A stretch of 13,750 bases of DNA, taken from positions 1 through 13,750 of the forward strand of contig JAHQWW010000100.1 in the NCBI GenBank assembly GCA_029856365.1, read 5' to 3'. Source of the stretch: Candidatus Hodarchaeota archaeon (GTDB taxonomy: Archaea; Asgardarchaeota; Heimdallarchaeia; Hodarchaeales; Hodarchaeaceae). Numbering within the stretch: position 1 is the first letter of the stretch; each line of letters starts with the position of its first letter. The notes under the pieces were generated by a model. The model was not told the DNA's origin. It did no database searches and saw nothing but the letters and a program-made list of their open reading frames with translations. This document shows, piece by piece, positions 219 through 13,750 of the stretch. The position numbers were made by a program, and so were the translations under genes.

Positions 219-467
219 ATGTCAGAGAAAATTGGGAATATTGAAAATTTCTATTCCAAAATAAGTGTTGCTGTACTGGATATTACATCTGGATCTATAT
301 CCAAGGGTGACAAGATTACTATTAAAGGAAGTACTACTGATTTTGAAATGACAGTCGAATCAATGCAAATTGATCGTGTAGATATTGACTCAGCGTCTGC
401 AGGCCAAAAAATCGGTCTTAAAGTTCCAGAGCGTGTTAGACCTGGTGATGAGGCCTTCAAGATCTAG
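219..467 (+). CDS. Small translation elongation factor-like protein (stand-alone EF-Tu/SelB domain II-type beta-barrel, also resembling the U32 peptidase C-terminal domain)
   Basis: 82 aa with strong SD. Pattern IG.I.NFYSKISVA...I.KGD.I.IKG.TTDF...VESMQID...I..A.AGQ.IGLKV..RVR.GD matches this small family. Confidence 0.8.
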   Translation: MSEKIGNIENFYSKISVAVLDITSGSISKGDKITIKGSTTDFEMTVESMQIDRVDIDSASAGQKIGLKVPERVRPGDEAFKI

Positions 468-518: not shown

Positions 519-2015
519 TCAAGAGAAATCCATGATATTACTACAAAAATCTAATATTTCATCTTTTATTTTATCTGAAATTTTGTATAGGTCAAAAATT
601 ATCTCATCAACTTTTTCAGCTTTACTAGAAAAGTCATAATTTTGATGTTTCATAAGATATAACACTATTTCTTTCACAATTGTAACTATTTCCGTTTTTT
701 GGTCCATAGAAGGGTAGATAAAGGGAATTTCTTTAAGAAAACTAGTAGCGATAATATTTGAGCGGTGGATCACTTTTCGAGTTAGATACTGGACAAGTTT
801 ACTATTCAAAAACCCTAAAGAATAGAATATATCTTCGTCATTATCAAAAAAGAAGTTCGCATTTACTCCGAATAAATTTCCTGGGGGCATATATGCAGCT
901 GAAAACTTTCTTCCAACGCTGCTACAAGTGATCCCTTCTCTGAAATAGAATTGTTCATTCCTAACAAGAAAATTCTTAGGGTCGTTTTTAGCGTTCTTCT
1001 GATAATCTTTTTCTATGAAAAATGGTGTTTTATAGAAATAAGGAGTTCGTTGTCCAGATTTGTAAAACCCTACCCATGCGGAATCGTTTTGAACTTCTTC
1101 CGCTAGTCGTAGGTATTTTCCATCGTTACCAGTTGAGATACCCGTACCACCTTTTGTAATATCTCCAAATCTAGCAGGTGGGTTTTGGATCAAGCGAATA
1201 ATCGATTTTGGAACCCCTACAAAGAATTTAAGGTCTGGCATTTTACGATATTCGATTTGTGGTACAAGTTGAATTTTTGGAGGATTTTTGTATTCTTTTT
1301 CATTGCTTAAACGATCAATAAGACGCATCTGATGTTTTCTGTCCTCTATAAGTTGTTTACTCTCCCAAAAGCTACTGGTGTGTTTTTTTTCCAACAGAAT
1401 TATAGCAGTTCTGACATCAGCATCACTACGATGAAATAATCGCCAAGGAGCTAGCTTTATTTCCACAATTTTACAGCTGTTTAGAAGGAATTCTCTAAAA
1501 CGATAATAATATCTATTTGTAAAAAAAGTATCTTGGATAATGAAACAAAGAATCCCCCTATTCTTCAAATGTTGTATTGCATTTACCACGAAAAGAGAAT
1601 AGAGATTGTATAAACCAATAAACCCATATTTCTTTTCAAGTTCTTTCCTATGTTTTTTCATATAATAGCTTTCTCTACGACTTTTATATGGTGGATTACC
1701 AAGAATGATATCTTTTAATGGATAATCATTAAGTAATGTGTCAGTACATTTTGCATGAACACCCATTAAGTGTAATTTCTGAATCTTTTCTACATCAATA
1801 TCGTGAGCGGTAATTTGAGAGGGGTTTACTCCTCTATCAATGAGTGCTTGGATAAATACAGCATCTCCTACACTTGGATCGAGGATTTTTGATTTTTCTG
1901 TTATAAAAGGATGAACTAACTCTGCCATATGGCACGCTGTTGCATAAGGAGTTTTATAAACTCCTTTTTGTCTCTTTAAAGAGAATTTTCTACTTTGTTT
2001 AGATATTCTTGGCAT
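519..2015 (-). CDS. N6-adenine DNA methyltransferase, gamma class (Eco57I/TaqI-like), with a PglX-like C-terminal target recognition region
   Basis: Motif X GVYKTP, motif I-like ILDPSVGDAVF, motif II DID, motif IV ILGNPPY, NLYSLF, LKNRGILCFI. C-terminal GISTGND..YLR / RNEQFYFREGITCS / LGFLNS pattern. Confidence 0.88.
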   Translation of the reverse strand: MPRISKQSRKFSLKRQKGVYKTPYATACHMAELVHPFITEKSKILDPSVGDAVFIQALIDRGVNPSQITAHDIDVEKIQKLHLMGVHAKCTDTLLNDYPLKDIILGNPPYKSRRESYYMKKHRKELEKKYGFIGLYNLYSLFVVNAIQHLKNRGILCFIIQDTFFTNRYYYRFREFLLNSCKIVEIKLAPWRLFHRSDADVRTAIILLEKKHTSSFWESKQLIEDRKHQMRLIDRLSNEKEYKNPPKIQLVPQIEYRKMPDLKFFVGVPKSIIRLIQNPPARFGDITKGGTGISTGNDGKYLRLAEEVQNDSAWVGFYKSGQRTPYFYKTPFFIEKDYQKNAKNDPKNFLVRNEQFYFREGITCSSVGRKFSAAYMPPGNLFGVNANFFFDNDEDIFYSLGFLNSKLVQYLTRKVIHRSNIIATSFLKEIPFIYPSMDQKTEIVTIVKEIVLYLMKHQNYDFSSKAEKVDEIIFDLYKISDKIKDEILDFCSNIMDFS

Positions 2016-4533
2016 CCCCTAAATTTTCAATGTAAGGGTGAGTAAATTCGTTCTTTAGTGTTTCTATCTGGTCGTCTAAACCATATAATTGATAGACATA
2101 CATATCAATGGTTTTTATAATTCCCTGAATATTATCATTAATCTTGAAAAATCCCCTTCTACCATATTTCAATAATTGTTGGTGTTGTTTAGGAGTGAAT
2201 TTACTTGATTCTAGCAGATTACATATATTCTTTGTGTGTTCTGTAATTTTTTTGACAAGAAAATTTTCTTCCTTAGTTGTAGGTACTTTTATTGGTATGT
2301 TTGAAATTGTTTTAGGATAAAGCTCAATCTTTTGAGCATCTATTTTCTTGGCAACTATATATAAATAGAATTCTATCAATTCTGAGTTTAAGACTCCTAA
2401 AATATAGTATATATTCAATGATTTTTTCATGGCGATTGATGTACAATCGATCGAACTATATCTTTGCCTCTTATCAATAGCAAATCTTGGAACACGAGCA
2501 CGATAAGGACACATTATTTTCAGCTTAGCTTTAAAAAGATGTAGATTTCGCACCTGAGCAATTTCATACCATTTTGCTAAATTTTTTCTAACCTCATATC
2601 GACTCGTTAGAATTTCTTTAAAATGCTCTAAATATTGTTTTGTGAATGGAAATTCATCAATATTTATGCCTCGTTTAGTTAGTATAACATATTTTCTATC
2701 CCCAATGATAATATAAGGTAGGATATTAGGAGTTTTCACAATTTCTTCTACTATCTCTGTTTCTAAGGGAAATCGATCAATAATCCCTTTGTTTTCAATT
2801 AAAGCGTTGATTTCTCCATTCTGCTTAATTATACTTGGAGAGAAAACCTTGTCTTTCCCCGAATGATAACCTGTTCCAATATTACAAACTTGCTCTAAAG
2901 GAACACATTGACTTTCTATCCTTTTTATCAAGTTTCTTAATGTTTTAGAGGCGAAAAGAAATTTACTATTGAGGGTTTCAGTCCGACTAATTGTGAAATG
3001 TTGGAAGATACGACTTGATTTAAGAGAAAGATTCTTTATACTTGCCTGTAATTCTTGTAGAAGCGTTCGTGGAGATAAGTTATGATTTTTCAATACCAAA
3101 ATTTGACTTTGATGATTATAAGCTGAATTTTTAGTCAGAAAGAGAACTGCAGTATTGATTCCCTTTGAAAATATCTTAAAATCGCGAAAATCGATAATAG
3201 CATCAACATATCCAGATCCAATGAGCTCAGATCTTAATTTTTCTGCATAACGTGCTTCTAAAAAATATCTGGTAACAACTAAGACACTGCTGCCATTTGG
3301 AGCTAGCAATTGTTTAGCTCTCCAGATAAAGTAATAATAATAATCATTTAATCCTGTATAGATCTTAGAGTAAAGGTGTTTTAGAGTACGCTTTACTGTT
3401 TTATCAATGAATCGATATCCGATGTAAGGAGGATTTCCGAAGATTATGTCAAATCCAGACGTCTTGGATTTATTAAAGATTTTAGGAAATTCTAAAAACC
3501 AATGGAAAATGTTCTGATTGTTTAAAAATATTGGATTATTAATTTCATTGTCGTTTATACCATATATTAAGAGTTGATTGTAATCAACCATTCTATGAAT
3601 CCTTGGATCTGCAATGAATCCTATTAAAAAATTCCCAGTTTTCAAGTTAACGTTGTCTATGAGTTCTAGTAAATCCTCAACCTGTATGGAGGGGGCCTTC
3701 TCAAAAATTTGCAGGATTAGTCGAACTTTACACATAACAAGGGCATTTTCATCAATATCCACCCCATATAAATTATATAAACATATTCTCTTCAAAACTA
3801 AATATGAATTCCCATCCAATAACCCAAGTCGATTATTTAATGTTAATAAATAATTGAAAGCTGCTAAATACAAAGTTCCACACCCAACAGAGATATCTAA
3901 TGCCCGTATTTTTAAAATAATATTATTGAGTCTCCTTTTTTTGTCTCGTTTTAGGAGATCAAGATCATTCATTGAGAAATTTGGTGAATTAAGAAATCTT
4001 GCCAAGTGTCGTTGAAAACAAGATTGTACCATCCAATATGCAAAAGGATAAGGGGTGAAAACAACCCCATGTTTTTTTGGATTTTCTGAATGATAAATTA
4101 ATTCGAAAATTTCTGGTGTTACAGAGTTCTTCTTACTTTTATTGTTTAGATTTTGGCTTAATTCCCATGAAAAGGATTCGATGAATTTTTTTAATACATT
4201 ATTAATAATTTCCTCTTCTTTTTTTTCCAAAGATTCAATTATCTTCAATTCTAAAGGGAAATAAATATCAGCAATTCTCTTAAAAGGCGCCAAGTCATTT
4301 AATGAGAATAAAGGATTCATTATACTAGTTACTTCCCTCTCTATTGTTCTTGAAGGAGATCTTTGGGATACAATGGTGAGATAAAAAGCCAAAAAAACCG
4401 TTCTTTTCATTAAATCTTGACAGAATAAAAAATCCTTTTGATCATTCTCATTTTTCCCTTTAAACAGCATCTGTAACTTCTTAAACGTAATTTTATACTG
4501 ATTAATGAAGGAATTCAATGAGTAGTTCCTCAA
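1999..4533 (-). CDS. Eco57I/type IIG-like N6-adenine DNA methyltransferase with TaqI-like C-terminal specificity domain; no recognisable endonuclease domain
   Basis: TTG start, with an in-frame TGA at 4552-4554 just upstream. HGVVFTP (X), ALDISVGCGT (I), NLYGVDID (II), FHWFLEFPKIF...GFDIIFGNPPY (IV), IIDFRDFKIF, and YILGVLNS in the TRD. Overlaps the next gene by 17 bp. Confidence 0.88.
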   Translation of the reverse strand: MRNYSLNSFINQYKITFKKLQMLFKGKNENDQKDFLFCQDLMKRTVFLAFYLTIVSQRSPSRTIEREVTSIMNPLFSLNDLAPFKRIADIYFPLELKIIESLEKKEEEIINNVLKKFIESFSWELSQNLNNKSKKNSVTPEIFELIYHSENPKKHGVVFTPYPFAYWMVQSCFQRHLARFLNSPNFSMNDLDLLKRDKKRRLNNIILKIRALDISVGCGTLYLAAFNYLLTLNNRLGLLDGNSYLVLKRICLYNLYGVDIDENALVMCKVRLILQIFEKAPSIQVEDLLELIDNVNLKTGNFLIGFIADPRIHRMVDYNQLLIYGINDNEINNPIFLNNQNIFHWFLEFPKIFNKSKTSGFDIIFGNPPYIGYRFIDKTVKRTLKHLYSKIYTGLNDYYYYFIWRAKQLLAPNGSSVLVVTRYFLEARYAEKLRSELIGSGYVDAIIDFRDFKIFSKGINTAVLFLTKNSAYNHQSQILVLKNHNLSPRTLLQELQASIKNLSLKSSRIFQHFTISRTETLNSKFLFASKTLRNLIKRIESQCVPLEQVCNIGTGYHSGKDKVFSPSIIKQNGEINALIENKGIIDRFPLETEIVEEIVKTPNILPYIIIGDRKYVILTKRGINIDEFPFTKQYLEHFKEILTSRYEVRKNLAKWYEIAQVRNLHLFKAKLKIMCPYRARVPRFAIDKRQRYSSIDCTSIAMKKSLNIYYILGVLNSELIEFYLYIVAKKIDAQKIELYPKTISNIPIKVPTTKEENFLVKKITEHTKNICNLLESSKFTPKQHQQLLKYGRRGFFKINDNIQGIIKTIDMYVYQLYGLDDQIETLKNEFTHPYIENLGDAKNI

Positions 4534-4900: not shown

Positions 4901-7315
4901 ATGGCAACAGGACCACATGTCTCGAAACCCTTGCGAAAAGCTAAAATTCTAGCTATTGATGATGATGAATGGTTCATTCGACTTATTATTAAAAAATTCC
5001 AAGATGTAGATCCAGGGTTTAAGATCATTCCAGCATACTCAGCAAATGAGGCAATAGAAAAATTAGGGGATGAAAAGTTTGATTGCATCCTATGTGACCA
5101 TAAATTGCCAGGAACTATCCAAGTTAGTGGGAAGGTTTTCCCTTCTGATGGAATTAATTTGATGAGAAAGTTTACAGCCATGGATATTGATACTCCAGTT
5201 ATCTTTGTAACTGGACAAGGATCCGAAGAAATTGCATCTGAGGCATTACAGTTAGGTGCGAGTGGATATTTCATTAAAAGAGTTCAGCCTGGTTATTTCA
5301 GCCTTATGGCGACATCTATCCGCCAAACGATTGATAGATATTGGCTTCAGAAAGAACTACAAAAATCAGAATCGCGTTATCGTGATTTGTTTGAGAATTC
5401 TGCAGGATTAATCTTTATCTTTGACTCTGAAGGAAAATTGCTAGAAACAAACAGAAATTTCCTCTCCATTTATGGATATTCATTTGATGAAAGCCAAGTC
5501 CTTAATATAGAGAAAATGGCTTATCAGGAAGATCTTGGAAAATGGCAGGAAATGCTTAATTCTATTTGTAAAGGTAATACAGAAAGTCGTATGCTGCGAT
5601 CGGTGACGAAGTATGAACAAATTCTGCATCTAGATATTACAGCTAGACCAATCTATGGAAAGAAAACTCAAACAGTCACTGGGATACAAGCAATCGCTCG
5701 AGATATAACACAACAGGTAAAAACTCAACAAGCTCTTATCGACTCTGAAGAGAAACATCGAAAGATTGTTGAGGGATCCATTGAAGGTATCATCATAATG
5801 GATCAGGAGGGAACGATTCTTGATTGGAATCCTGCTGCTACAATAATCACAGGATTTTCCGCAGAGGATACCTTGGGTCAGTCAATTTGGATGATTATTA
5901 AACAACTAGAACCGTTAGAGATTAGTACAGTCTCTGAGGAGGAGGATAGTTATTCAAAAATACTTGAAGAGTTCAAGAGTTTTATGATTCCAGATAAAAT
6001 TCTAAAAACTCCAAAATTTCTTGAATATAGCATTAAAAATGTAAAGGACAGTTCAAAACGTATTCTAGAAGTCACTTTATTCATCATCGAGCACTCAAAG
6101 GGTTATCGTATCGCTAAAGTAATGCGTGATGTTACTGCAAAAAAGATGGCAGAAGAAGAAACCAAATCTTATGTACAGCGTTTTCAGACTCTCATTGAAC
6201 AAGCAGCTCTCGGTGTCTGGATTACAGAAATTGAGGATGAAAAAACAATCTATGTGAATGATAGTGTTGCTCAAATGTTGGGTTACAGTCCCCATGAAAT
6301 GATAGGAGTTTCAGTATTAGACTTTGTTACACCTAGTAGTGCCGAACTATTGACAAATATAACCAAACAACGCCTTAAAGGGGAATTAATTGATGATGTT
6401 TACGAATTAACATTTTATCATCGATCTGGGAAAAAAATTTCGACTCGTGTGAATGCAGCTGCGATTAGAGACGAGAAAGGTAACATTCTAGAAACATATG
6501 GCTTTATTCGAGATATTACTCAAGAAAGGCAACGTGAGAAGGAGTTACAGACCACAAAGGAGTTTCTCGAATCAATTATTGATTCTATGTCTGATGGTTT
6601 ATACACTTATGACCGAAATTATAAAATAACATCAGCTAATCCCAGATTAAAGGAAATACTTGGCTACAAGAAACACCCACTTATTGGAAAAAGCATTTTG
6701 GATATTTTTCCATCGTATGAACATTCTCGTGTGAAAGAACTGACTCAAGAAAGGATGATTGGAAAGAAAAGTGATAGATATCTTTTATTAACCTATATAA
6801 CAGCCCAAGGTGATGAAATAAAAGCTTCAGTCTCTTCTGTTCCCCTTATAGCAGATGATAAAGTTGTGGGAGCCGTAGTTACTGTCTCAGATATCACAGA
6901 ACAAAGACGAATTGAAAAATACCTCAGAGAAGTAACTAAAGAATATGAAACTTTAGTTGTTAATCTACCTCTTGGATGGCTAAAGATTGATAATATGGGC
7001 CGTGTAATTGCTTATAATAAAAGTGCTCAAAAATTATTGGAGTTTACTGAAATTTTGGATTTAGAAACAGTGAATATTCTTGATTTCTATCCTTTTCAAA
7101 AAGCAGGATTAGCAACTCAATTTCGAGATTTAATCTATCAAAAAGAAGTTGAAAAAAAATCTTTTGATGCAATTTTAGAAGATAATCAGGGAGTACATCA
7201 TCATCTTAGATTTTATTCTTTCCCAATTTACCATGAAGTAGAGCCTAGGATTTCCGCTTGGTTTTTAATTGTTGAGAGGATTAAAAAAGAATATCCTTCA
7301 GATTTAAATTTGTAG
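4901..7315 (+). CDS. Response-regulator receiver domain followed by five PAS/PAC domains; no kinase or output domain
   Basis: REC: ILAIDDD, phosphoacceptor D66 (ILCDHKLPG), T104 (FVTGQG), K126. PAS domains start at YRDLFENS, HRKIVEGS, FQTLIEQA, LESIIDSM and YETLVVNL. The first four end in RDIT/RDVT/RDIT/SDIT. The protein stops right after the fifth PAS. Confidence 0.9.
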   Translation: MATGPHVSKPLRKAKILAIDDDEWFIRLIIKKFQDVDPGFKIIPAYSANEAIEKLGDEKFDCILCDHKLPGTIQVSGKVFPSDGINLMRKFTAMDIDTPVIFVTGQGSEEIASEALQLGASGYFIKRVQPGYFSLMATSIRQTIDRYWLQKELQKSESRYRDLFENSAGLIFIFDSEGKLLETNRNFLSIYGYSFDESQVLNIEKMAYQEDLGKWQEMLNSICKGNTESRMLRSVTKYEQILHLDITARPIYGKKTQTVTGIQAIARDITQQVKTQQALIDSEEKHRKIVEGSIEGIIIMDQEGTILDWNPAATIITGFSAEDTLGQSIWMIIKQLEPLEISTVSEEEDSYSKILEEFKSFMIPDKILKTPKFLEYSIKNVKDSSKRILEVTLFIIEHSKGYRIAKVMRDVTAKKMAEEETKSYVQRFQTLIEQAALGVWITEIEDEKTIYVNDSVAQMLGYSPHEMIGVSVLDFVTPSSAELLTNITKQRLKGELIDDVYELTFYHRSGKKISTRVNAAAIRDEKGNILETYGFIRDITQERQREKELQTTKEFLESIIDSMSDGLYTYDRNYKITSANPRLKEILGYKKHPLIGKSILDIFPSYEHSRVKELTQERMIGKKSDRYLLLTYITAQGDEIKASVSSVPLIADDKVVGAVVTVSDITEQRRIEKYLREVTKEYETLVVNLPLGWLKIDNMGRVIAYNKSAQKLLEFTEILDLETVNILDFYPFQKAGLATQFRDLIYQKEVEKKSFDAILEDNQGVHHHLRFYSFPIYHEVEPRISAWFLIVERIKKEYPSDLNL

Positions 7316-8370: not shown

Positions 8371-9732
8371 CTAAGCCCGATACACGTTTTGTGTCAATAA
8401 TCCAATTAAATTAAAAGAATGTATCAATAAAAGCAAACCAATAGCAAGTAACGCAAAATAGCCAAATTGATTCCAGCGTTTGATAACTTTGTCAAAATAA
8501 TCTCCAAATGGTAAAAGAATAATTAATGAGATCCAAGTAGCACCAAAGTAAGCGGCGAATAGATGACTTCTAATTGGATGGTTTTGAAAAATAAAACCAG
8601 CAAACATACCTGGGATTCCAATAATAGCAAAACTCAAAAGCGCTAAAATAAGCGTACAACTGACAGAGAAAACAGCTCCCCATGCAATACCCCGAATGAA
8701 AGATCTTTGTACAATAATATGATCTTTAGTATCTTTAAAGTCACCCAATTGTAATATGATGGGACCAAATCCTATAAAAGCCCAAATTAAATTAAAAATT
8801 ATTGTTATAAAGACACGTGAAGAATCTAATCTATAGTTCATTTTATACCCTGAATTACGATATAACAAAAACGTCGACAACCAAATAGGAGTCATCAGCA
8901 GAGATGTCAAAAAAGCTCCCCCAAAAATAAATATCATTATTCCTTCTGTGATAGGATCAATTTGTTGACCAAGATCAGCATAACGACTGGAATACCAAAA
9001 GATATAAATTAAGAGTATTAAAATAAAGGTTCCTAAATAATGTAATAAATTATTTCCATCAAAACCACCAAAATTTTGATAAAATAATGAGGCTTTTCTT
9101 GATCTTATTACTCCAAAATAACTGGAATGTGATATAGTACCCTTTACTGGGAAATCTTTGGATGAAGTTAGACTTGCTCTTAGGGTAGATAAAGGAAAGG
9201 AAACAGGCTGGAAAAAATGTGAGAGATCTAGTTGATAACCCTGGAAGGGTTCCTCAAGAAGTTTTGATCGTTGTTTTATTTGACGTTTCAACCCACAATG
9301 TATGCAGTATTCTGTGTCAGGAGGATTAGGCTTCCAACAACGATTACATAATTCACTTTGTACTTGATCATTTGTAGTTATCTTCTTCAGCTTACCTCCA
9401 CATAGATGACAGAAATTGTGAGTAGCAGGAACTGCTTGACGACATAGAGGGCACTTAAATATTTCAGTAGCTTGACTTTGTTCTGCTGAGGATGTCACAT
9501 TCTTCCCGCAAAAAATGCACCAATCGGTTTCTGGAATTTTCATCCCACAATGAGGACAGATCGTTAATGGGGATTGATCAAGGATTCTAGATGAATCAGT
9601 ATCCAGTTTTTTCCCACATTTAATGCAAAATTGTGTTGCAGGGACTATTTTTCCACAGTGTGGGCATTTTATATCTTGCATTTGCCACTTTTGTCCTAAA
9701 GACTTTTCTAATAATTCAGATATGCTTTCCAT
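8371..9732 (-). CDS. Membrane protein with four N-terminal zinc ribbons and a multi-TM C-terminal domain resembling a degenerate M50 (site-2 protease) fold
   Basis: Eight CxxC motifs in four CxxC-x9/10-CxxCG units (aa 23-147). About 6 hydrophobic segments in aa 229-445. LLPFG...VIKRWN motif near the C-terminus. Confidence 0.8.
   Translation of the reverse strand: MESISELLEKSLGQKWQMQDIKCPHCGKIVPATQFCIKCGKKLDTDSSRILDQSPLTICPHCGMKIPETDWCIFCGKNVTSSAEQSQATEIFKCPLCRQAVPATHNFCHLCGGKLKKITTNDQVQSELCNRCWKPNPPDTEYCIHCGLKRQIKQRSKLLEEPFQGYQLDLSHFFQPVSFPLSTLRASLTSSKDFPVKGTISHSSYFGVIRSRKASLFYQNFGGFDGNNLLHYLGTFILILLIYIFWYSSRYADLGQQIDPITEGIMIFIFGGAFLTSLLMTPIWLSTFLLYRNSGYKMNYRLDSSRVFITIIFNLIWAFIGFGPIILQLGDFKDTKDHIIVQRSFIRGIAWGAVFSVSCTLILALLSFAIIGIPGMFAGFIFQNHPIRSHLFAAYFGATWISLIILLPFGDYFDKVIKRWNQFGYFALLAIGLLLLIHSFNLIGLLTQNVYRA
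9295..9666 (-). repeat. Four tandem zinc-ribbon repeats (protein level, about 35-aa period)
   Basis: CPHCGKIVPATQFCIKCG, CPHCGMKIPETDWCIFCG, CPLCRQAVPATHNFCHLCG and CNRCWKPNPPDTEYCIHCG, starting at aa 23, 59, 94 and 129. Confidence 0.9.
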
Positions 9733-9790: not shown

Positions 9791-10258
9791 CTATAAAATC
9801 ATAGACCAGATCCAAACCGTTATCGTTAATATTTCTAAGAAAATAATTTTCCGATTTCTATAATAAGATCTAAGAAAACTGACAAAAGATTCTTGTTTTG
9901 ACATTTTCTCATAATCAAGATTAAGTAATGAAATTGGTTTATTAGAGAAAGGTGCAAATAGATTAATTTCCCAATCGATGATATCCACAAAGATATGAAA
10001 AATAGCTCCAAGAAAAAATAAGAATTGAGATAATAAACCGAAAATTCCAAGAAAGAGACCCCCTAGCAAGTACAATAAAAGGAAATGTGTGGGTAGTTGT
10101 CTATGACTCTTTTTTTTTATTACTAAGTTTAAAATATAGTCAATATCGGGAAAGATAGAACCAAGAGCAAACCATATCAAATTAGAGGGATTATAGCCCC
10201 AATGAGCTAAGATATTTACGCTAGCAATTCCTAACAAGAGATGAACATGCGGCATCAT
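9791..10258 (-). CDS. YdjM-like (DUF457) membrane-bound metal-dependent hydrolase
   Basis: Family signature: N-terminal H, GS.FPDID, HRxxTH (HRQLPTH), H...D (FHIFVD), FAPFS, and hydrophobic segments. Confidence 0.85.
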   Translation of the reverse strand: MMPHVHLLLGIASVNILAHWGYNPSNLIWFALGSIFPDIDYILNLVIKKKSHRQLPTHFLLLYLLGGLFLGIFGLLSQFLFFLGAIFHIFVDIIDWEINLFAPFSNKPISLLNLDYEKMSKQESFVSFLRSYYRNRKIIFLEILTITVWIWSMIL

Positions 10259-10326: not shown

Positions 10327-10701
10327 ATGCCATATCGTATATTATTAAAGAGACTTATGGACCAACACATTGTTACTGGCTGTATTATTCTTGATCCTTA
10401 CGGAAATATCTTCTATCATGCAGGTGCCTTTCCTCAAGCTGGTGAGAAGAATCTGGTTGATGGATACTACTTACTTTCAGAATGGGTCACGTTTCCTTCG
10501 TCCATTAGTCTTGCTGGAGTAAGATATAACTCTTTGATGAATGCTTATCCGAATTATTGGTGTTTGACAAATCCAAAGGGTTATGGATCACTCATTATAC
10601 AGATTTGTAAGAATAAATATTATTTTCTTTGTTACTTAAAAGATGAAGATCCAATAGAAATCCAGAAAGAGATTGCTAAAATGGGGGAGCTCTTTGGTTA
10701 A
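10327..10701 (+). CDS. Profilin-like protein (Asgard-type eukaryotic signature protein)
   Basis: 124 aa, the typical profilin size. N-terminal helix, then VTGCIILDPYGNIFY (cf. V..AAI.G.DG.VW), SISLAGVRY (cf. G/S.SI.G.KY), TNPKGYGSLII (cf. the Asgard TN..GKGH.LI pattern as I recall it), YFLCY strand, and an amphipathic C-terminal helix. Confidence 0.8.
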   Translation: MPYRILLKRLMDQHIVTGCIILDPYGNIFYHAGAFPQAGEKNLVDGYYLLSEWVTFPSSISLAGVRYNSLMNAYPNYWCLTNPKGYGSLIIQICKNKYYFLCYLKDEDPIEIQKEIAKMGELFG

Positions 10702-10718: not shown

Positions 10719-12125
10719 TTGGCCACTATTAATTATAACGATTTGAAAAATATATTTAGAGCTTACGACATCAGGGGTATTTTCAATGAGGAAATCACCC
10801 CACAAGTCCATTTTCGGATTGGTCTCGCATTTGGAACGTTTTTACAGCTAGAACAGGGATTAAAAGAGGAACATGTTTTCATAGCCTATGATATTCGACA
10901 GACCAGTTCTTTACTGGCTCAAGCTTTTGCTGCGGGGGTTATGGCTACTGGAATCAACATTGAATATTCAGGGGAAGCACTTCAGTTTGGTGCATGCATG
11001 TTTACAGCATGGCAGGGTAAAGCTTTTGCCACAGCCTTTATTACGGCTTCTCATTTACCACCAGAGTGGAATGGTGTGAAGTTCTATTATGGTAATGGTG
11101 TTGGTTTCTCAGAAGAAGACAATATGAGAATTCGTGATATCTTTGTTGAAGGTGAATTCGTAACCCCGAAGTGGAACCAAGTTGGCCAAATGACGGTTAC
11201 GAATCTTAAAGAGAAATATCATGAATTTTTAATTTCTAGGTTCTCATTAAAGCAAGAATTGAAAATTGTTGTAGATTGCGGGAATGGCTCTTCGTGTTTA
11301 TCCGCCCCCACTATTCTCCATGGAATTGGATTAGATATTATTCCTTTATTTTGTGAAGTAGATCCCACTTTCCCGAATCGGAGTTCAGAACCAAATGAAG
11401 AATCATTGAGATTTCTTTCAGAGAAAGTAAGATCTGAAAGTGCTGATTTTGGTGTTGGTTTCGATGGAGATGGCGATCGTGCTGTTATTGTTGATGATAA
11501 GGGACGAGTTCTTCTTGCGGATATTACTGGATTAATTCTAGCTAAATTTATGATTAAAGAATCACCAAATCTAAACCGTATACTTGTAAATGTTGAATGC
11601 TCACTAGCTTTAGAAAAAGTATTATCATCTTATAGCATCATTGATCGTATTAAGGTCGGACATACGTTTCTTACTGCTGATGCTCAGAAAAAACCTGATA
11701 CATTAATTGGAATAGAATCAAGTGGCCATATGGTTTTCCCAACAGTATATCTTTTTGATGATGCAATGATAATCCCTCTAAAATTGGCAGAGATTCTTTC
11801 AAAACAGGATCAACCTTTATCAGAACTAGTCGATGAACTACCTACTTTACATAAACGAAAAATTGCTGTATCTTGTCCCGATAAAATAAAGTTCAAAGTT
11901 ATTTCTGAGTTATTAAACAGTCTTCAATCACAATTCAATAATATTAATCCTATTGATGGTGTTGGTATTCCCATTGGGAAAGAATCCTGGGTATTAATTC
12001 GTGCTAGTAATACGGGCCCGAAAATACGTATCACTGTCGAAGCGGAAACAGAAATAGAAGCCAATGATTTGTTATCAGAATTCCAAGGTCATTTAGAAGC
12101 CAAGATAAACGAATTGTTAGATTAG
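10719..12125 (+). CDS. Phosphomannomutase/phosphoglucomutase (alpha-D-phosphohexomutase)
   Basis: IFRAYDIRG, phosphoserine loop ITASHLP..WNG.K, VDCGNG, metal loop FDGDGDR, sugar loop GIESSGH, and RASNT in domain 4. TTG start with SD. Confidence 0.95.
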   Translation: MATINYNDLKNIFRAYDIRGIFNEEITPQVHFRIGLAFGTFLQLEQGLKEEHVFIAYDIRQTSSLLAQAFAAGVMATGINIEYSGEALQFGACMFTAWQGKAFATAFITASHLPPEWNGVKFYYGNGVGFSEEDNMRIRDIFVEGEFVTPKWNQVGQMTVTNLKEKYHEFLISRFSLKQELKIVVDCGNGSSCLSAPTILHGIGLDIIPLFCEVDPTFPNRSSEPNEESLRFLSEKVRSESADFGVGFDGDGDRAVIVDDKGRVLLADITGLILAKFMIKESPNLNRILVNVECSLALEKVLSSYSIIDRIKVGHTFLTADAQKKPDTLIGIESSGHMVFPTVYLFDDAMIIPLKLAEILSKQDQPLSELVDELPTLHKRKIAVSCPDKIKFKVISELLNSLQSQFNNINPIDGVGIPIGKESWVLIRASNTGPKIRITVEAETEIEANDLLSEFQGHLEAKINELLD

Positions 12126-12970: not shown

Positions 12971-13750
12971 TCAATCCTTTTTTTCAAAATTATGGAACGT
13001 TTTAGTAATAATATTTTTTTCATAATTGTCTAGAGCGTAGATTTTGAATATTTCCTGATTTAAATCTTTTAATTGCTTCAATTGGTGAGATTTTGCTTGT
13101 TGGATGTCCCAGGGTAATTGATGCAGGTCGTTTACTAATTCTTGAATCTTAATTAGATTTGAAGGCTTCTTAATTGGTAGATCTTTCAAAAAAGCGATAG
13201 CAATCTTCGGAAATATTTGTTTTACAGATGTATAGCGCTGCATAAGGTAAAAAGACATTAATCTTGAATTTAATAATGCTTCAAGATAAATTAATTCAAT
13301 AGTGGGGCGATTGGGCTGTAGAATAATCATGTACACATCACAAACGCAAAAGTGTTGATTAGGATCATAAACCGAAATTAATTCATGACCTATTCGTCGA
13401 AGTAGAAGTTTTGGCTGCAGATACAAGTTAAAATCTTTGAAAATGGATTTGTTATTTTTATCAAATCGAATATAACGAAGTTCCTTTTTTAAACGAAATT
13501 TTCTTATTGATCGACCAGCAATCAATGGCATAAATTCTAAATCTAGCCTCTGATCACTTGTTTTAGAAGAATGAAACCCTAGCTCAATCCCTCGTGAGAT
13601 TGATACCATTTCACCTAAAGGAGTACTATTTCTTTGAATCTTTTTTAAAATTGAACTGATTGTAGCACTATATTTTGGTAGCAATATTTTGTATGTATTC
13701 TCCTGGATTTCTTTTTGAATGATCCTTTGTTTATCAAATACTCGGAAGGG
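12971..13750 (-). CDS. 3' part of a third Eco57I/TaqI-like DNA methyltransferase or type IIG enzyme (TaqI-like C-terminal specificity domain); partial, start lies beyond the window
   Basis: The frame stays open from 13684 to the window edge (PFRVFDKQRIIQKEIQENTYKIL...). PLGE...ISRGIELG, PLIAGRSIRKF, PKLLLRRI, YLEALLNSRL..FY, LKDLPI and LNQEIFKIYAL are TaqI_C-like. Catalytic motifs are not in the window. Confidence 0.8.
   Translation of the reverse strand, partial: PFRVFDKQRIIQKEIQENTYKILLPKYSATISSILKKIQRNSTPLGEMVSISRGIELGFHSSKTSDQRLDLEFMPLIAGRSIRKFRLKKELRYIRFDKNNKSIFKDFNLYLQPKLLLRRIGHELISVYDPNQHFCVCDVYMIILQPNRPTIELIYLEALLNSRLMSFYLMQRYTSVKQIFPKIAIAFLKDLPIKKPSNLIKIQELVNDLHQLPWDIQQAKSHQLKQLKDLNQEIFKIYALDNYEKNIITKTFHNFEKKD

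Follow-up and report, generated by a model that had tools for sequence, protein, structure and literature searches.

A zinc-ribbon-bearing membrane protein of Hodarchaeales as a probable catalytically dead site-2 protease homolog

Is a membrane protein of an Asgard archaeon, annotated for its zinc ribbons only, a site-2 protease (S2P) that no longer cuts? The question is raised by a gene in the 13,750-nt stretch of Candidatus Hodarchaeota DNA analyzed here (the window; positions 1–13,750 of contig JAHQWW010000100.1), which is AT-rich with a GC content of 31–37%. The gene (8371–9732, minus strand) is an intact open reading frame (ORF) of 453 codons, as seen from the ORF list and the translation, and terminates with a stop codon at 8371–8373; amino acid (AA) numbers given below refer to this 453-AA product. 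The original prediction, made from the DNA letters alone, described four zinc ribbons and a linker in front of a multi-helix membrane domain, and read the latter as an M50 peptidase (S2P) fold devoid of catalytic residues. The best overall explanation of our results, to which we give a probability of about 0.65, is that the protein is a maintained intramembrane pseudoprotease with a zinc-ribbon array, serving as a client-binding scaffold or sensor.

Relation of the membrane domain to M50 peptidases

The comparisons rest on a small protein family. A word-indexed search returned 32 proteins with 46–100% identity across the membrane half; except for one short sequence on a 2-kb contig, these are 387–463 AA long and have zinc-ribbon Pfam matches. 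An exhaustive search of 1.84 billion cluster representatives yielded five clusters, three of which are distant (24–32% identity) and share the zinc ribbons and the same membrane domain. Altogether, 32 close and 5 distant homologs were obtained, all with zinc ribbons and this membrane domain. Their current annotation is "zinc ribbon domain-containing protein" only, and the named relatives are all labeled as Asgard archaea (Heimdall-, Hod-, Hermod- or Promethearchaeota).

The membrane domain (AA 226–453; 8374–9057, minus strand) is a probable catalytically dead M50/S2P fold, as judged from an AlphaFold2 (AF2) model, a shape search and profile comparisons with hhalign and HMMER. The AF2 model of AA 205–453, built from a 25-sequence family alignment, was confident, with a predicted local distance difference test score (pLDDT) of 83 and a predicted template modeling score (pTM) of 0.82. 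It contains five long helices and, directly after helix 2, a short helix between two beta strands, which is the arrangement expected for M50 at this place. When the ESM Atlas was searched with this shape and the 30 nearest models were ranked, the first was an archaeal "site-2 protease family" cluster (87% PF02163), with a template modeling (TM) score of 0.66 normalized to the query and 0.73 to the target and a superposition of 209 residues at a root-mean-square deviation of 3.7. The second was a cluster combining M50 with a zf-AN1 finger (TM 0.63/0.61 over 201 residues).

For profile–profile comparison a small-M50 profile of 26 small archaeal M50s, relatives of a 231-AA M50 of the same genome, was used. 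Hhalign paired the core family with this profile at P 1.1e-3 over 134 columns, and the family extended with its distant members at a score of 34.9 and P 2.8e-4, collinearly over 217 of about 250 columns. Two further M50 profiles were also matched end to end, with P values of 5e-4 and 7e-3 (207–217 columns across the three profiles). Among the controls, reversed profiles scored 18–19 and the unrelated membrane family YdjM 12.6, while 180 block-shuffled nulls had a mean of 19.1, a standard deviation of 3.9 and a maximum of 37.3, one of them attaining the observed score. The block-shuffled null is conservative, because its blocks retain the true motifs.

Reciprocal searches with hidden Markov models (HMMs) gave results in the same direction. 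The family HMM scored 21.2, 19.1 and 15.6 bits with three of 121 M50 proteins, compared with at most 3.0 bits for reversed M50 decoys; its top non-self match among the 6,372 ORFs of the genome was an ABC permease at 14.4 bits, a chance match. Conversely, an M50 HMM scored 14.3 bits with the distant member P0038 and 11.7 bits with P0037 (decoys at most -0.9), and P0038 reads ITLSHK at the M50 HELSHK position. The coinciding residues are structural ones: YGARAEFR against SGYKMNYR in the Gly-rich beta segment that follows the HExxH helix, the Pro of APG, the Pro of NLLP, and KV..WN. The pairings made by eye in the original prediction, YRNSGYKMNYRL with YGARAEFR and LLPFGDYFDKVIKRWN with NLLPIGxLDGxKVLAWN, were reproduced by both the hhalign and the HMMER alignments. 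A language-model feature search listed M50 as the first named family at a score of 0.87, which is below the trust level of the tool and serves as a lead only.

Several results weigh against M50 descent. PF02163 was not matched by the protein or by any of the 25 aligned members at E-values up to 10, a scan of the genome with PF02163 did not recover the protein, and the NCBIfam scan gave no M50 match; only weak, noise-level matches (DUF2070, SPC12) were returned when the protein, its membrane half and the 25 members were scanned against Pfam and NCBIfam. The family profile found nothing among PDB sequences at E-values up to 10, and neither Foldseek against the PDB nor VIA-align against 48,161 representatives, followed by a second look, returned an S2P chain or anything above helical-bundle noise. 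The hhalign probability was only 20–41%, and since 1 of 180 nulls attains the score, the sequence evidence alone amounts to a P of roughly 1e-3 to 1e-2. In the Atlas ranking, non-M50 clusters that are unannotated or repeat-bearing follow closely (TM 0.56–0.62). As to the Pfam scans, even genuine small archaeal M50s score only around the PF02163 cut-off (21–45 bits, with two of six below it). The same genome encodes a fifth small M50 of 204 AA with HELAH and LDG motifs (contig C118:3850–4356, plus strand). This protein was missed by the PF02163 scan of the genome and scored 127 bits with a custom small-M50 HMM; the Pfam M50 model under-detects small archaeal S2Ps. The predicted S2P fold thus stood up in the shape search, where M50 clusters took the top two places, in hhalign comparisons with three M50 profiles and in reciprocal HMMER searches above decoys, and found no backing when Pfam was scanned directly or solved structures were searched.

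One way to read the failed searches is that the domain is an unrelated five- to six-helix unit, a transporter or a plain anchor, whose M50 likeness stems from chance and membrane composition, and that the protein is simply a membrane-anchored zinc-ribbon protein. The absence of M50 matches in Pfam, NCBIfam and PDB-sequence searches, an hhalign probability below 50% with one block-shuffled null reaching the observed score, chance HMMER matches of up to 14 bits in the proteome, and the fact that TM values near 0.6 are common among helical bundles are all compatible with it. Yet three independent M50 profiles align collinearly from end to end, the best-conserved structural residues (the two Pro residues and KV..WN) coincide, the two nearest of the 30 Atlas models are M50 clusters, high HMMER scores are enriched in M50s (3 of 121 vs. 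1 of 6,372), and P0038 keeps LSHK at the HExxH site. We therefore regard an unrelated domain as unlikely. Common descent of the membrane domain with M50, for which the lines of evidence are independent and individually modest, is in our judgment very probable, and the domain most likely belongs to the M50/S2P fold as a diverged member without catalysis.

Catalytic residues, conservation and a second zinc-finger lineage

M50 catalysis needs HExxH, a motif of a transmembrane helix that binds zinc and is catalytic, and the Asp of NxxPxxxxDG, the motif that provides the third zinc ligand. HExxH is found in 115 of 120 small M50s, the exceptions being four fragments and one protein with HELLGH, and in none of the 38 family proteins. 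The corresponding segment, PIWLSTFLLYR in the core family (AA 282–292 of the 453-AA product; 8857–8889, minus strand; located from the translation and the alignments), lies at the cytoplasmic end of helix 2 and holds no His, Glu or Asp, its register being uncertain by one residue. The place of NxxPxxxxDG is taken by ILLPFGDYFDKVIKRWN (AA 405–421; 8470–8520, minus strand), as located from the translation, the HMMER alignment to M50s and the motif variants within the family. Here the core family reads ILLPFGDYFDK and the distant members LLPFGNVLGK. P408, the Pro of the motif, is invariant, and Ile or Leu stands in for the Asn; with LLP and WN as anchors of an ungapped alignment, the position of the Asp is occupied by F/Y413. 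D414, invariant in the core family, replaces the Gly of LDG one residue past the Asp position, where the distant members have Gly. In addition, an invariant Asn, N228, is the hhalign counterpart of the Glu that is invariant in the N-terminal helix of M50s.

Both losses claimed in the original prediction were thus recovered, the second with the refinement that an Asp lies one residue further on, and the relatives consistently lack the metal ligands (motif loss in 38 of 38). Because the defining motifs HExxH and LDG were looked for and are absent, the protein should not be counted as an M50 member in the enzymatic sense.

Near-invariant residues of the membrane domain are N220, N228, W246, P282, R292, N314, P324, G330, H390, P408, D414 and K418. 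When the distant members are included, the invariant set shrinks to W246, P282, N314, P324, G330 and P408. This bears on whether the protein could still be an enzyme that uses a new polar set on the cytoplasmic face (H390, D/E411, D414, N314 and R292) to carry out hydrolysis or some other reaction. In the 25 core members of the alignment these residues do not vary, and several are situated close to the former active-site face; yet H390, D411 and D414 are not retained in P0036–P0038 or in the diverged copy of genome G285 described below, and there is no His pair or His–Glu combination of the kind a metalloprotease mechanism would use. A new enzymatic activity is, in our view, quite improbable.

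The distribution of the family is very narrow. A core profile found one copy each in 16 of 20 other genomes of the GTDB genus of the window and no copy in the other sampled genomes of the phylum. A broader profile, run over all 83 genomes of the class, found a copy in 16 of 21 other genomes of the genus; one extra weak match in the genus had internal stops and was treated as noise. A diverged copy of 458 AA with three ribbons occurs in G285, which belongs to a sister family of the same order, and beyond the genus and G285 nothing credible was found among the 83 genomes. Restriction to Asgard archaea therefore holds within what was searched. In a search of sequencing runs, DNA of the window was present in marine sediment, seawater and mangrove metagenomes, and no RNA run was listed among the matches.

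For the least saturated pair, the window vs. L009 (dS 0.6–0.9), the ribbons had a ratio of nonsynonymous to synonymous substitution rates (dN/dS) of 0.14, the linker one of 0.19 and the membrane domain one of 0.11. The gene is maintained under purifying selection. The possibility that it is a decaying, functionless copy of an active M50 gene would account for the disappearance of all catalytic residues; it is contradicted by the reading frame, which 17 genomes of the genus as well as distant relatives have kept open, and by strongly conserved motifs in all three modules. Because the catalytic residues are missing in all relatives and the three modules are under purifying selection (dN/dS 0.11–0.19), decay has next to no probability left, and the doubt voiced in the original prediction, that this copy might merely be degenerating, is removed. 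With both zinc-binding His, the catalytic Glu and the LDG Asp lacking, the protein is most likely a maintained pseudoprotease. It corresponds to what an S2P pseudoprotease is taken to be, namely an S2P homolog that has no zinc motif and is conserved under purifying selection.

A second lineage of this kind was met in the same class. The family HMM weakly matched a 345-AA ORF from another family of the class (L032:36–1070, plus strand), in which a linker joins a zf-AN1 finger (43 bits) to a membrane domain. The latter scored 57 bits against the small-M50 HMM, and its family reached 98.8% by hhalign; by these matches the membrane domain of the L032 type is unambiguously M50. It reads LILPQK in place of HELxHK and NTLGRR in place of xLDGxK. 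The dead zf-AN1 form is present in 11 of 11 genomes of its genus (L032, L035–L044), and none of the recovered copies has HExxH. Orthologs in a third family of the class (L045–L053) keep HELAH or HEMAH and are of the active type. Judging from these motifs, loss of catalysis in zinc-finger-tethered small S2Ps thus appears to recur in the class. Active-type small M50s with an N-terminal zf-AN1 finger were found as well (P0139, P0141), and as such fusions exist, a cytoplasmic zinc finger before a small M50 is an established layout. A search for longer relatives of the small M50 of this genome, with fused domains, gave none.

Loss of catalysis in the two dead families may go back to separate events or to a shared one. 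The dead AN1-type motif LLPFRNTLGRRIMDWN resembles LLPFGNVLGKMVQEWN of the distant four-ribbon members, and the profile similarity between the two families (P 5e-4) is no stronger than that to M50 generally. When the loci of the AN1–(pseudo)M50 genes were compared with the locus of the 453-AA gene, no common neighbors were found.

Zinc ribbons, linker and a proposed role

The N-terminal part of the protein contains eight CxxC pairs, at AA 23, 36, 59, 72, 94, 108, 129 and 143, which form four ribbons. The zinc-ribbon families tested were PF12773, PF13240 and PF18912, and matches above the cut-offs were obtained with DZR (48.7 bits; cut-off 27.3), Zn_Ribbon_1 (40.9; 25) and DZR_2 (28.7; 27), so that the predicted array of four was borne out. 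Ribbon 1 (CPHC...CIKC, AA 23–39; 9616–9666, minus strand as all features of the gene) was located by its CxxC positions and a Zn_Ribbon_1 match at AA 22–43; it is variable in the family alignment, missing from several homologs and dispensable. Ribbon 2 (CPHC...CIFC, AA 59–75; 9508–9558) was delimited by CxxC positions, Pfam and the family alignment. Ribbons 3 and 4, as well as much of the linker, are almost invariant in the family. For ribbon 3 (CPLCR...FCHLCGG, AA 94–111; 9400–9453; DZR match at AA 94–147), C94, P95, L96, C97, R98, H105, C108, H109, C111 and G112 are kept in at least 90% of the aligned sequences. Ribbon 4 (CNRCWKPNP...CIHCG, AA 129–146; 9295–9348) was defined by Pfam and the family alignment; by eye its C-x2-C-x3-N-x6-C-x2-C spacing suggested a RanBP2/NZF type, but zf-RanBP was not matched and it was kept as a generic zinc ribbon.

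The linker (AA 147–225; 9058–9294) is about 80 AA long and carries the motifs PF.GYQ, FP.KST and RNFGGF..N, which are conserved in the family alignment. No Pfam family was matched when the linker was scanned alone, and its end aligns by hhalign to the N-terminal helix of small M50s. The order of linker and multi-helix domain is as originally described, the membrane domain being confidently folded. In the full-length AF2 model (pLDDT 66) the linker is mostly of low confidence, with pLDDT below 50 for AA 152–210, and the ribbons and linker have no confident placement relative to the membrane domain. Both the ribbon array and the linker are basic, with isoelectric points of 8.3 and 9.8, respectively.

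Clusters of Lys and Arg lie before helix 1, after helix 2 and in the GDYFDKVIKRWN segment, and the two predicted outer loops (AA 255–259 and 371–385) contain neither residue. By the positive-inside rule the N-terminus is predicted to be inside, so that linker and ribbons would lie on the cytoplasmic side together with the former active-site face.

We propose that the protein would work in three parts: a cytoplasmic N-terminal array of four zinc ribbons, a conserved linker that is predicted to be flexible, and a membrane domain that probably derives from the small archaeal M50 fold, having kept the structural Pro and Gly residues and the beta–helix–beta element and lost catalysis. Since the active-site face would point to the cytoplasm like the linker and ribbons, we consider it most likely that a transmembrane or juxtamembrane stretch of some client protein is still bound by the domain but left uncut, and the ribbons and linker would couple this client to cytosolic partners. 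The result would be a membrane scaffold or sensor with a logic comparable to that of plant EGY3, iRhoms and Derlins. What tempers this proposal is that the adaptor role, the client and the partners are all inferred.

A wider idea concerns both dead lineages. AN1 fingers in eukaryotes serve Cdc48/proteasome-type or ubiquitin-like systems. Heimdall-class Asgards may at least twice have made zinc-finger-tethered small S2Ps into adaptors that pass membrane clients to cytosolic machinery of such a type, which would be a prokaryotic forerunner of the iRhom/Derlin principle; we consider this a long shot.

Gene neighborhood and comparison with known systems

Directly upstream on the same strand, after a 58-bp gap, lies a gene for a YdjM-family (PF04307) membrane protein (9791–10258, minus strand; Pfam), in which H4, H6, D38, D40, H52, H58, H88, D92 and D95 are invariant over nine orthologs. 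This adjacency is kept in 9 of 11 loci of the genus and in the distant locus L019 (32% identity), and a YdjM-type membrane hydrolase is a possible membrane partner of the pseudoprotease. Further on are a 124-AA ORF without a Pfam match, which adjoins the locus in most genomes of the genus (10327–10701, plus strand; ORF list), and a gene of the sugar-phosphate mutase family PGM/PMM (10719–12125, plus strand; Pfam). In most genomes of the genus the order is the 124-AA ORF gene, divergent from YdjM and the family gene, then a GFO/IDH/MocA oxidoreductase gene and a gene for a protein with receiver (REC) and PAS domains. The distant copies are more informative. In L019 a PGM gene is followed by YdjM, the family gene, PIG-L and GFO, and in L020–L022 PGM lies beside the family gene, with genes for a DedA/VTT protein and an NAD-dependent epimerase following. 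The recurrent neighbors (PGM/PMM, YdjM, GFO/IDH/MocA, PIG-L, epimerase and DedA/VTT) give a weak hint of envelope sugar or lipid-linked glycan metabolism. Two points count against a functional reading of this order: within the genus it mainly reflects recent common ancestry, and in G285 no PGM or other shared neighbor was found within about 1.3 kb on either side of the family gene.

The neighborhood also bears on the alternative of a membrane-tethered regulator, whose ribbons would bind nucleic acid or a component of transcription or translation, with the pseudo-M50 domain sensing a membrane or lipid-linked signal, or holding the ribbons until release, and controlling the divergent PGM/PMM gene. 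That PGM/PMM adjoins the family gene even at 24–32% identity, that only 68 bp lie between the divergent gene pairs and that ribbon array and linker are basic would fit such a role; no DNA-binding family was matched in Pfam, however, PGM is not adjacent in G285, no conserved operator or cleavage site came to light (no search aimed at one was made), and DZR-type zinc ribbons carry no assigned function. We hold a regulator of this kind to be doubtful, and keep the client-binding pseudoprotease as the preferred explanation.

Other genes of the locus were noted. The REC–PAS protein of the window (804 AA; 4901–7315, plus strand) has a receiver domain, then four PAS domains, and no recognizable output domain, and its gene is convergent with the oxidoreductase gene; a shorter REC–PAS version lies beside the locus in L019. 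Near the REC–PAS gene, an ORF of 82–83 AA with a weak match to EF-Tu domain 2 occurs both in the window (219–467, plus strand) and in L019 (6939–7190, minus strand). The window further contains two overlapping genes for Eco57I/TaqI_C-type N6-adenine methyltransferases of 498 and 844 AA (519–4533, minus strand), beside which the Pfam scan found no nuclease domain, and a third ORF with a TaqI_C specificity domain that runs off the window end (12971–13750, minus strand). In G285, the gene upstream of the family gene (L033:29–1204, plus strand) encodes a 391-AA protein in which a single transmembrane helix is found together with a large domain at the N-terminus and a zinc ribbon (CPQCG...CKNCG) at the C-terminus.

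Among known proteins, the nearest are the small archaeal M50s (PF02163), of which the same genome has copies of 231 and 204 AA. They agree with the window protein in the length of the membrane domain, the order of its elements and an N-terminal helix before helix 1, and also share the Gly-rich beta segment after helix 2, an APG-like Pro, LLP.G...KV..WN and the predicted N-in topology. Unlike them, the 453-AA protein lacks HExxH, the Asn of NxxP and the Asp of LDG, resembles them by profile–profile comparison and shape and not by Pfam, and has about 225 extra N-terminal residues with four ribbons. The zf-AN1–M50 fusions likewise place an N-terminal cytoplasmic zinc finger and a linker before a small M50-type domain; their finger is a single AN1 type, where the family of the window has four DZR-type ribbons, and this four-ribbon family is far more diverged (P about 5e-4 to the AN1 forms). 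S2Ps are classified into four groups (PMC10202637). The small archaeal M50s correspond to Kinch groups II/IV, which have no extra domains and are described as uncharacterized (PMC10202637).

EGY3 is an S2P pseudoprotease of plant chloroplasts and is stated to be plant-only (PMC9355673, PMC10978774). Like the window protein it is a conserved S2P homolog without HExxH, and it is thought to stabilize or bind membrane proteins that it does not cut (PMC9355673, PMC10978774); it has no zinc-ribbon array, orthology is unlikely, and catalysis was probably lost independently. iRhoms and Derlins are pseudoproteases of the rhomboid family (PMC3149277). The logic proposed for the window protein is theirs too, an intramembrane protease fold that, without catalysis, acts as a client-binding adaptor with a cytoplasmic extension, but their fold and class are those of serine rhomboids and not of zinc M50 peptidases, and they are eukaryotic, so that the likeness is one of analogy only. 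A search of the available literature returned no paper that pairs Asgard archaea with site-2 proteases, and no archaeal intramembrane pseudoprotease was apparent from the titles and abstracts of the papers found on this subject. Within this search, nothing contradicted the suggestion that the architecture is undescribed; S2P pseudoproteases as such are already known from plants in the form of EGY3.

Intramembrane pseudoproteases such as iRhoms, Derlins and EGY3 are important regulators in eukaryotes, and to our knowledge S2P-type ones have been described from plant chloroplasts only. The protein studied here would be a dead S2P homolog under selection that carries an array of zinc ribbons on the cytoplasmic side. 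It comes from the archaeal class closest to eukaryotes, and it bears on the annotation of proteins that are now labeled "zinc ribbon domain-containing protein". Together with the second dead lineage, which has active-type orthologs in a neighboring family, it may allow the conversion of an intramembrane protease into an adaptor to be studied as a tractable natural experiment.

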